Source: a virus
Length of the DNA: 64,000 nt
Direction: 5' to 3' (one strand)
Virus record (IMG/VR): IMGVR_UViG_2574179724_000002
Part shown: positions 51,569 to 53,642 of the stretch, piece by piece
Layout: every line of letters starts with the position of its first letter
Numbering within the stretch: position 1 is the stretch's first letter
Notes under the pieces: model-generated
Told to the model about the DNA's origin: nothing
What the model saw: the letters and a program-made list of their open reading frames with translations, nothing else
Databases searched by the model: none
Made by a program: the position numbers and the translations under genes

Positions 51569-52891
51569 ATGCTATTTAGAACTAAGGAACCTGAAAAACG
51601 TGATTGGGCGATGGACTTAATCAGTGATGGAGTAATTCCAGGCTATTCAACTGGTAGTTTTATAGGTATATCAGCTTTAAAAAACTCTGATGTGCTAACT
51701 GCTGTTTCAATCATTGCGTCAAACGTTGCTAGATTTCCTTTGCTGTTGCTTGATGAACAAACCGGGAAGCCTTTTGATAGTGGAGATTTAACATATCTGC
51801 TTAACAAAAAGCCAAATGCAATGTTAGATGGTTACCATTGGAAATTTATCATGACGATTAATGCACTGCTGGCCAATGATGGTGTTTCACGAATTGTCAG
51901 GGATCCAGTAACGCAGGAACCAGCGCTGATTCAATATTTTCCGCCTAGTCAAGTCTATATTGATGATTCAGATGTTAATAACATCAAATATGAATTTACA
52001 CCGCTGGGAGCTAATCAAACCATTGTTGAGCCAGCTCAAAATGTGATTCATTTTAAATTTTTCACGTATGATGGCATTCATGGACGCTCGCCGCTTCTTA
52101 GCTTGAGAGATGAAATAAACTTGCAAGAGTCAGGCATTCAAACCCTTTCTAAATTTTTCCAAAGCGGGTTAAAAGGCGGAATTTTGAAAGTTAAAGGAAG
52201 GTTGAATAAAGAAGCCAGAAAAAAAGCTCGCGAAGATTTTGAATATGCTCAGCAAGGTGCGACAGGTGGTTCTCCAGTCGTAACAGATGACACTATTGAT
52301 TATCAGACGCTTGAAGTTGATACAAATATTTTGCAGTTAATCAACTCGAACAACTATTCAACTTCCCAAATTGCCAAAGCTATGCATATTCCGGCTTACA
52401 AGTTGGGTGTTAATAGTCCTAATCAATCAGTAAAGCAGCTGAACGATGATTTTATTAAATCAGATTTGCCTTACTATTTTGAGCCAATTTCGTCTGAGAT
52501 TGAATTAAAGATGTTGAATGATCAGCAAAGGCATCAGTTTAAAGTTCAATTTGATACCAGAAAAGAAACTGGGATGTCTGTTGCGGATGCCAAAAATGCT
52601 GTTGATGGTTCGTTGCTTGATCCAAATGAAGCACGATTCGAAATGGGTGTTAATAAGCGCGATGATCCTAATATGGATCGGATGCAGTCTAACTTGAATA
52701 ATGTTTATCTCGACATGAAAGAGGATTATCAAAATCCTAATAAGCCTGATAATACAGTTAAAACAATCAATGAGCGTCGTAAAGCTCAAGGCCAGGAGCC
52801 AATTGAAGGCGGAGATGCAATTTATATGTCATCCAGTGATATTCCGGCAATAGATGTAAACGATACTGGTGGTGATTCTGATGACTCTTAA
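51569..52891 (+). CDS. Portal protein, HK97 family, with extra C-terminal segment
   Basis: ALKNSDVLTAV..IA, VIHFK, GIHGRSPL, IAKAMHIP. Confidence 0.93.
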   Translation: MLFRTKEPEKRDWAMDLISDGVIPGYSTGSFIGISALKNSDVLTAVSIIASNVARFPLLLLDEQTGKPFDSGDLTYLLNKKPNAMLDGYHWKFIMTINALLANDGVSRIVRDPVTQEPALIQYFPPSQVYIDDSDVNNIKYEFTPLGANQTIVEPAQNVIHFKFFTYDGIHGRSPLLSLRDEINLQESGIQTLSKFFQSGLKGGILKVKGRLNKEARKKAREDFEYAQQGATGGSPVVTDDTIDYQTLEVDTNILQLINSNNYSTSQIAKAMHIPAYKLGVNSPNQSVKQLNDDFIKSDLPYYFEPISSEIELKMLNDQQRHQFKVQFDTRKETGMSVADAKNAVDGSLLDPNEARFEMGVNKRDDPNMDRMQSNLNNVYLDMKEDYQNPNKPDNTVKTINERRKAQGQEPIEGGDAIYMSSSDIPAIDVNDTGGDSDDS

Positions 52892-53642
52892 GCCTTTATA
52901 TGGCTCTATGAATTCGACACTTGCTAAAACAATAGCCATGAACAATCCTAACTATTCCAAAATAGTTGAACCATTTGGAGACGCTGGTTCCTATGCTTTA
53001 TATCCACAGAAGAAACCGGCAAAACAACATATCGTAAATATTCAAGATGAAGAAACGCTTGCGATTATGCAATTTGCGCAATCATACAGCAATTCTGATT
53101 TTTCAACTCTAAAAAATGAAAATTGGAATAGTGATGAAGAAACTTTTAATCAGGTTCAAACAATTAGTGATTTAGATGGTGAAAAATTAGTATATAAGCA
53201 TTTGTACAATAAGTGGTATGGAATGAGCATGCTTGGAAGTGATGAAGTTAGTTGGAATATGCTAACACTCAATCAGAATAATAAGAATAAACTGTTTGCG
53301 TTTCCGTTGATGAAAGCACTTCTAAAACCGGTGGAGTTTCAAAATGTCGATCCGCTGAATTTAATCCCAAGTGATGGGTTCATGATCTTAATTCCTGATA
53401 GTCAAAATATAGATAGTGTTAAAAGCAAGCTGACTAGTATATCGGGCCTGTTTTTCTTTGCGGGCAAAATTTCAGACGGATCACAAGCAATTCAGGATGC
53501 TCAAACTATGAGTAATCTAAATGTACACGGCCAAGAGGTGGCTTCGATAATGATGAACAGCTACTCAATGATAACTAATTATGATTCAAGACTATCTAAA
53601 ATTGATCCAGCAAATTATTCAATGAAAGGAGGTGGTATGTAA
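52881..53642 (+). CDS. Dam/D12 methyltransferase-fold protein lacking the DPPY catalytic motif
   Basis: KIVEPFGDAGS, HIVNIQDEE, FQNVDPLNLI, FMILIPD, MITNY collinear with Dam motifs. Confidence 0.65.
   Translation: MTLKPLYGSMNSTLAKTIAMNNPNYSKIVEPFGDAGSYALYPQKKPAKQHIVNIQDEETLAIMQFAQSYSNSDFSTLKNENWNSDEETFNQVQTISDLDGEKLVYKHLYNKWYGMSMLGSDEVSWNMLTLNQNNKNKLFAFPLMKALLKPVEFQNVDPLNLIPSDGFMILIPDSQNIDSVKSKLTSISGLFFFAGKISDGSQAIQDAQTMSNLNVHGQEVASIMMNSYSMITNYDSRLSKIDPANYSMKGGGM

Follow-up and report, generated by a model that had tools for sequence, protein, structure and literature searches.

A D12/Dam methyltransferase homolog with lost catalytic motifs, coupled to the portal gene and co-inherited with a portal tail in phage head modules

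Introduction

D12-class N6-adenine methyltransferases (PF02086), with EcoDam (2g1p/4rtj), T4Dam (1yfj), DpnM (2dpm) and Mcbe1 (7m6b) among the solved representatives, are the closest characterized enzymes to the protein considered here. A methylase may also travel inside a phage capsid, for which P1 DarB provides a precedent (PMC5512222), and arrays of D12 domains joined to prohead proteases fit the description of phage-type polyvalent proteins, which are presumed to be carried in capsids (Iyer et al. 2017, PMC5512222). The present analysis concerns the open reading frame (ORF) 52881-53642, called X, in a 64,000-nt stretch of viral DNA (IMG/VR record IMGVR_UViG_2574179724_000002, hereafter the window); the group of its homologs is called the dead clade. 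X shares fold and ancestry with the D12 enzymes, including the order of motifs, the inserted helical domain with its hairpin and the C-terminal (I/L)(T/S)NY strand, but the enzyme-defining residues are replaced throughout the clade and about 13 positive charges are missing.

By sequence, X is closest (E 1e-48 to 1e-10) to D12 arrays that carry XkdF (PF14550), ligase and other domains, are encoded in head modules and are presumed to be capsid cargo. These arrays retain DPPY, are basic and contain 2-4 tandem D12 copies in proteins of 700-2500 amino acids (aa), whereas X is a solo, apparently inactive domain linked to a portal tail. Polyvalent proteins are defined by at least two disparate domains; X has a single one, although it does lie in a virion-gene context.

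Two further systems invite comparison. MuF proteins (PF04233), such as SPP1 gp7 and Mu gpF, occupy the same slot as X, after and overlapping the portal gene, but are related to it neither in sequence nor in fold, and the window X has no PF04233 match. SPP1 gp7 is reportedly brought into procapsids by binding the portal; to our knowledge, MuF is not described as requiring a portal tail dedicated to it and transferred along with it. Catalytically inactive regulators with a methyltransferase fold are exemplified by DNMT3L and METTL14, in which, as is proposed for X, the fold has been kept under selection after the loss of catalysis and is used for protein-protein interaction. Those proteins, however, pair with an active paralog, whereas X is present in a genome without a D12 methylase and has a portal peptide as its constant partner.

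No description of the dead D12 clade or of the portal tail was found in the literature searched, and the polyvalent-protein paper (PMC5512222) mentions neither. Members of the X family are labelled "hypothetical" or, wrongly, "DNA adenine methylase", because neither Pfam nor a functional PHROG covers the family and sequenced cultured phages lack it. New here are the constant coupling of X to the portal gene, the tail shared by the portals, and the conservation of tail and X as an island in otherwise unrelated head modules. The data suggest that X is a head-module accessory protein derived from capsid-borne methylases.

Homology and predicted fold

X is a true homolog of the D12/Dam adenine methyltransferases (PF02086/TIGR00571). 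A profile made of the 21 dead-clade members only, aligned by hhalign with a profile made of 38 active domains only, gave a probability of 99.85% and E 1.5e-30 over 232 columns. A profile of 11 close homologs retrieved 341 matches from 1.84 billion representative proteins; about 25 of these constitute the close clade (>200 bits), and the remainder (E 1e-48 to 1e-7) carry strong PF02086 domains, up to E 3e-91. The profile alignment registers VEPFGDAGS on EPFxGGG, IVNIQD on (V/I)(L/I)NDxD and FMILIPDS on FFYLDPPY.

An AlphaFold2 model of X computed from a 59-row combined alignment reached a predicted local distance difference test score (pLDDT) of 93.7 and a predicted TM-score (pTM) of 0.88, and shows a Rossmann-type methyltransferase fold that retains the inserted helical DNA-recognition domain with the hairpin. 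Its best solved matches in Foldseek are EcoDam, Mcbe1, DpnM and T4Dam (TM 0.54-0.67, E 4e-11 to 1e-5), and viral D12 methylases are the top matches in BFVD. An earlier, sequence-only reading of the window had assigned X to the Dam/D12 fold and quoted a series of motif strings in support; the profile comparison and the structural matches to EcoDam, DpnM and T4Dam agree with the assignment, and every quoted string is present and in register with the D12 motifs, far above chance.

Standard family models capture X poorly. The Pfam D12 model has no match to the window X at E<=1, which places it below the gathering score, and matches three of the 11 X homologs weakly (best E 0.005); X was likewise not picked up by a whole-genome PF02086 search. 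Pfam, NCBIfam and PADLOC searches of the window X returned no match, some homologs giving weak D12 and Dam-family (TIGR00571) matches, and in PHROGs there was one weak match, to the function-less family phrog_13242 (E 4.8e-5). The close-homolog profile yielded nothing significant against PDB sequences, and a single-sequence hhalign comparison of X with the D12 methylase of the same prophage was in register and not significant.

The nearest active relatives consist of 2-4 tandem D12 domains fused to an XkdF-type prohead protease. Large head-module proteins with active D12 arrays and a C-terminal protease of this type were observed in the metagenomic sequences P0028, P0033, P0034, P0039, P0041 and P0067 and at locus L016; some of the fusions additionally contain an ATP-dependent DNA ligase and a metallo-beta-lactamase-fold domain, and P0039 an AdoMet-decarboxylase. 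At the C-terminal end of X, residues 238-257 (window 53580-53642), which follow the ITNY strand, form a short clade-conserved tail, (D/E)S(R/K)LxxIDP; the last residues of X are modelled at low confidence, and this short tail may be a second binding motif.

Loss of catalytic motifs and of positive charge

By every sequence criterion X appears to be catalytically dead, with binding of S-adenosylmethionine (SAM) and catalysis both predicted to be absent. Comparison of the 21 dead-clade members with 38 active relatives reveals the loss of motifs I, II, IV and X (residues are numbered here from GTG 52869, in the 257-aa reading; subtracting 4 gives positions in the 253-aa protein that starts at ATG 52881). 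The GGK of active domains, conserved at 92-95%, is replaced by N-x with a two-residue deletion. Motif I changes from FxGxG to FGDxG, Asp38 (95% of the clade) standing where active relatives have 100% Gly, while the motif II Asp, found in 100% of active relatives, becomes Ile/Val58, and the Glu opening the motif II strand (95%) becomes His54 (100% of the clade). An Arg conserved in 100% of active relatives is also replaced. At the DPPY position, where active relatives have D, P and P at 100% and Y at 97%, the window X reads I-P-D-S and the clade (I/V/L/T)-P-(P/K/D/…)-x, so that the first Pro alone is retained; (D/N/S)PP(Y/F/W/H) occurs at the right place in none of the ~25 clade members and in nearly all of ~140 more distant domains. 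The absence of motif IV had already been pointed out in the sequence-only reading, and to it can now be added the motif I Gly, the motif II Asp and GGK.

The change in charge is equally marked. Dead-clade proteins have a median isoelectric point (pI) of 5.8 and a net charge of -3, compared with pI 9.4 and +10.5 in the active relatives, and the clade no longer has the basic residues that are near-invariant in active domains, namely the GGK Lys, the Arg at window position L151 and KGK at S192/L194. This bears directly on the earlier proposal that X is a DNA-binding shield or decoy, packaged or ejected with the genome, that occupies methylase or restriction sites without methylating them. The model does keep the D12 fold with the helical DNA-recognition domain and hairpin, and the head-module context is compatible with co-injection. 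A loss of ~13 charges together with the conserved basic residues nevertheless gives the proposal no support, and a portal-level copy number would be too low to cover the sites of a ~40-kb genome; a shield of this kind is improbable.

Coupling to the portal gene and a shared portal tail

The window contains two tandem prophages arranged head to tail (1-30800 and 30997-64000), and X belongs to the head operon of the second, which opens with an integrase gene (30997-32139, - strand) and extends past the window end. The 253-aa X (52881-53642, + strand), annotated as a dead D12/Dam-like protein on the grounds of profile homology, fold model, motif loss and dN/dS (the ratio of nonsynonymous to synonymous substitution rates), lies between the gene for a 440-aa HK97-type portal (51569-52891, + strand; PF04860 E 2e-50; phrog_12 portal E 1.6e-78) and that for an S78 prohead serine protease (53643-54287, + strand; PF04586 E 2e-41). 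Its ATG is situated 11 nt before the portal stop TAA (52889-52891) and follows, at a distance of 5 nt, a Shine-Dalgarno-like GGTGGTGA (52868-52875, + strand), read from the sequence within the 3' end of the portal gene; the TAA of X (53640-53642) is directly followed by the protease ATG (53643). The in-frame GTG at 52869 is an alternative start giving 257 aa; the Met equivalent to ATG 52881 is the start in X homologs. No terminator-like site was found on the + strand between portal, X and protease. The coordinates given by the sequence-only reading, with an overlap of the portal stop and abutment on the protease, are thus right, and its placement of X in the late head operon is borne out, as is the coupling to the portal gene through overlapping start and stop.

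This arrangement is constant. In all loci examined (more than 20, non-redundant) X lies directly 3' of a portal gene, with a gap of -41 to +4 nt. Three Pfam families are represented among the upstream portals (PF04860, lambda-type PF05136 and Mu-type PF06074), and the gene 3' of X is of five kinds: S78, ClpP, S49, an S78-capsid fusion, or MuF. A programmed frameshift producing a portal-X fusion was considered and rejected because the frame of X is +1 at some loci and -1 at others; no portal-X fused protein occurs among the representative proteins matched by the X profile.

The X-associated portals are only 19-34% identical or not alignable, yet they share a terminal peptide. In the window this tail corresponds to portal residues T399-D429, TINERRKAQGQEPIEGGDAIYMSSSDIPAID (52763-52855, + strand), and the consensus, about 31 aa, reads T(I/V)NE(K/R)R-x3-G-x-x-P-(I/L)-x-GGDA(I/V)YMPSS-x-IPAI(E/D). 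None of the N, E, R, A, I and P positions varies among 21 sequences, and the peptide is usually followed by acidic residues. Every X locus has the tail, without exception in frame and at the C-terminal end of the portal, which in some loci extends variably beyond it with acidic or mixed-charge segments (L008, L012, L015 and L039). At L041 (1318-3806) a Mu-type portal with the tail continues into a low-complexity (EEKKPK)n repeat before its stop, followed by X and a MuF protein. The fragment upstream of the D12 array at L016, the only such fragment checked, lacks the tail.

Nucleotide comparison of the window with five other loci gives an identity of ~0.4, the background level, across the portal body; identity rises to 0.6-0.9 at ~52740, stays high to the X stop codon and falls at the protease. 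Given these sharp edges at ~52740 and 53642, the tail and X together make up a conserved, exchangeable unit of about 900 bp. The functional unit consequently starts at ~52740 rather than at 52881, since the portal C-terminal tail, overlooked by the sequence-only reading, is co-inherited.

The association also holds when the search begins from the tail. Pattern searches found X 3' of the tail in 15/16 matches among viral contigs, in all three real matches among genomes (a fourth being a chance match in a Streptomyces protease) and in 9/9 metagenome matches; these collections overlap, some contigs recurring in more than one, and diverged tails without X would escape such patterns. The lone exception, L057, has the first half of the motif only, and its ORF continues. 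A word-based protein search with the tail region alone returned two near-identical portals only. The window portal possesses its own copy of the native HK97-type C-terminal motif ~50 residues upstream of the tail, and the tail itself looks like a specialised copy of a portal C-terminus carried along as the cassette spread.

Selection, phylogeny and distribution

X is not decaying, and its intact frame is under strong purifying selection. With dS saturated for most pairs, three pairwise dN/dS values are usable: 0.069 for window/L012, 0.056 for window/L013 and 0.024 for L013/L011; the pairs with saturated dS are still 51-86% identical in protein. That the intact frame speaks against decay had been argued before, and these values, 0.024-0.069, are indeed non-neutral. 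Between the window and L012, X is 83% identical, the portal 26% and the capsid protein 19%.

In the maximum-likelihood tree 21 dead sequences fall on one side of a single branch with an SH-like approximate likelihood ratio test (SH-aLRT) support of 100. A long stem (about 2.0 + 0.64 changes per site) leads to short branches inside the clade, a pattern of a single function change followed by constraint, and of a single origin.

Such a pattern would also be compatible with X having become a new ligand-binding protein or enzyme that uses the remodelled cofactor cleft, with E34, D38, H54, N57, D60 and K200 as candidate residues. The very low dN/dS and the long stem followed by slow evolution fit this possibility, as does the fact that SAM-binding residues have been replaced by invariant ones rather than drifting; clade-specific invariant residues include H54 (100%), K200 (100%) and D38 (95%), as well as M228 and G104. 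X has, however, no known catalytic signature, the weak D12/TIGR00571 matches of some homologs being all that Pfam, NCBIfam and PADLOC offer, and a new activity would leave the portal tail unexplained, which makes this explanation quite improbable.

The dead clade has been found in Liquorilactobacillus, Oenococcus and Sporolactobacillus and in metagenome-assembled genomes of Desulfuromusa, Geopsychrobacter, Zetaproteobacteria and Acidiferrobacteraceae, so that the phages carrying it span Firmicutes and Proteobacteria. One of its loci, L018, belongs to the culturable Liquorilactobacillus mali ATCC 27304. It is rare, being present in 2/201 genomes sampled from the family of the host.

The distribution bears on another suggestion of the sequence-only reading, in which X counteracts the prophage's own ATPase-Toprim and methylase system as an antidote or inhibits by mimicking a methylase subunit, and on a broader version in which Dam-type enzymes of the host are the target. 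The prophage does encode a PD-Lambda-5-like pair with a D12-class methyltransferase: a 294-aa PD-Lambda-5_B-like D12 enzyme (32243-33130, - strand; PADLOC E 4e-101), which is the only PF02086 methylase in the genome, and a 556-aa ATPase-Toprim protein (33133-34806, - strand; AAA_15/AAA_21) that matches ATPase-Toprim_I-B, GajA and PtuA-type models. Genome G102, of the same genus and 100% complete, carries X at 76% identity and has neither a PF02086 methylase nor a homolog of the 33133-34806 ATPase; on this evidence a link between X and the pair was rejected and the antidote idea is unsupported. The spread of X across phyla in head modules, always linked to a portal, and the lack of any further D12 methylase in the window genome also count against it, and it can be regarded as very improbable. 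The pair itself (32243-34806, - strand) resembles a two-gene defence system and lies beside the integrase gene.

A portal-docked pseudoenzyme and its alternatives

It is intriguing to propose that X is a pseudoenzyme docked on the portal tail as a minor head protein, the two forming a functional unit, and there is about an even chance that this proposal is correct. X would descend from D12 adenine-methyltransferase domains of phage head modules, often fused to a prohead protease or MuF, and would have given up SAM binding and catalysis, together with most of the positive charge that its active relatives carry. Translational coupling to the portal gene would yield X at about the level of the portal, and X would dock on the ~31-residue C-terminal tail of the portal, as is suggested by a tail that is always in frame, under protein-level selection and essentially only found with X. 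Docked X would then enter the procapsid as a minor head protein of the portal vertex, in a slot and type of role resembling those of SPP1 gp7/MuF. Once there, it might hold or release the DNA end, be ejected with the DNA or serve as a decoy for a host factor.

In solved portals the C-terminal crown regions face the capsid interior. By analogy, the tail would project from the crown into the capsid, placing X inside it, and we infer that X is present in virions. A position inside the prohead is suggested by the D12-protease fusions, the occupation of the MuF slot, and the association with MuF itself, as a fusion partner in P0017 and as a neighbour at L041. In P0017 the MuF domain (residues 409-539) lies outside the X domain, and at L041 a MuF gene comes directly after X. 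In P0016 (L008:4467-5711), X carries a C-terminal extension of 160 residues without a Pfam match or any similarity to the MuF region of P0017; an S49-type protease is encoded next.

An alternative use of the same contact would be that of an unpackaged chaperone for portal assembly or quality control, which binds the tail in the cytoplasm late in infection and leaves before or during maturation, controlling, for example, portal oligomerisation or incorporation at the unique vertex. The tail-X linkage and the translational coupling apply equally here, the weakly acidic X gives no sign of DNA affinity, and the presence of X in virions is itself a deduction. The X-MuF fusion in P0017 and the prohead-protease fusions of active relatives, on the other hand, point inside the prohead, and dependence on such a factor would have to have arisen separately in three unrelated portal families, which otherwise assemble without it. 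A chaperone is accordingly judged unlikely, though less so than the shield, the new activity or the antidote.

Several observations weigh against the portal-docked pseudoenzyme itself. The linkage of tail and X means co-inheritance and joint selection, not contact. X is far better conserved than the portals, which would fit a conserved host target as well as a structural partner. The first half of the tail resembles the native HK97-type portal C-terminal motif (NExR...G..P..GGD), and the tail could have a portal-intrinsic role. The AlphaFold2 model from the 11 close homologs alone is poor (pLDDT 55), and since the alignment behind the high-confidence model included active D12 domains, the homology claim rests mainly on profile statistics. 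Finally, tblastn with the window X and three distant clade members against 50,697 GenBank phages gave no match, and the X family is, at tblastn sensitivity, absent from sequenced cultured phages.

A bolder version of the docked pseudoenzyme, put forward tentatively and somewhat short of an even chance, is that the ~900 bp constitute a portable cassette of docking tag plus cargo, which passes between unrelated phages, fuses its docking peptide in frame to portals of the HK97, lambda and Mu types and thereby installs X at the crown of any capsid. Such a cassette would be transplantable onto unrelated portals because the docking tail moves with the gene. If correct, this would amount to a new principle for capsid targeting and to a new role for a pseudo-methyltransferase, whether in DNA-end gating, in ejection with DNA or as a decoy. 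If the tail is a docking site, tail and X would be a small, naturally occurring device by which a chosen protein can be loaded onto the portals of very different tailed phages; such a device would help to explain how internal or ejected proteins are recruited and might be exploited to engineer capsid cargo in laboratory phages. X is in addition a clear case of a methyltransferase fold repurposed after the loss of catalysis and constrained more strongly than its essential head neighbours.

Other features of the two prophages

The remainder of the head module of the second prophage comprises the small terminase (49227-49670) and large terminase (49667-51373) genes upstream of the portal and, beyond the protease, the gene for an HK97-fold major capsid protein (54330-55529, + strand; PF05065 E 1.7e-21; phrog_10). 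Directly 5' of the small terminase gene lies one for an HNH endonuclease fused to a P-loop kinase-like (AAA_18/AAA_33) domain (48282-49067); HNH genes also precede the small terminase at L001 and L004.

The first prophage encodes a Terminase_3 large subunit, an SPP1-type portal (9577-11016), a tape-measure protein (17966-22363) and a GH25-LysM lysin (28488-29741), and its own post-portal slot is taken by a MuF gene (10991-12478) that overlaps the portal gene.

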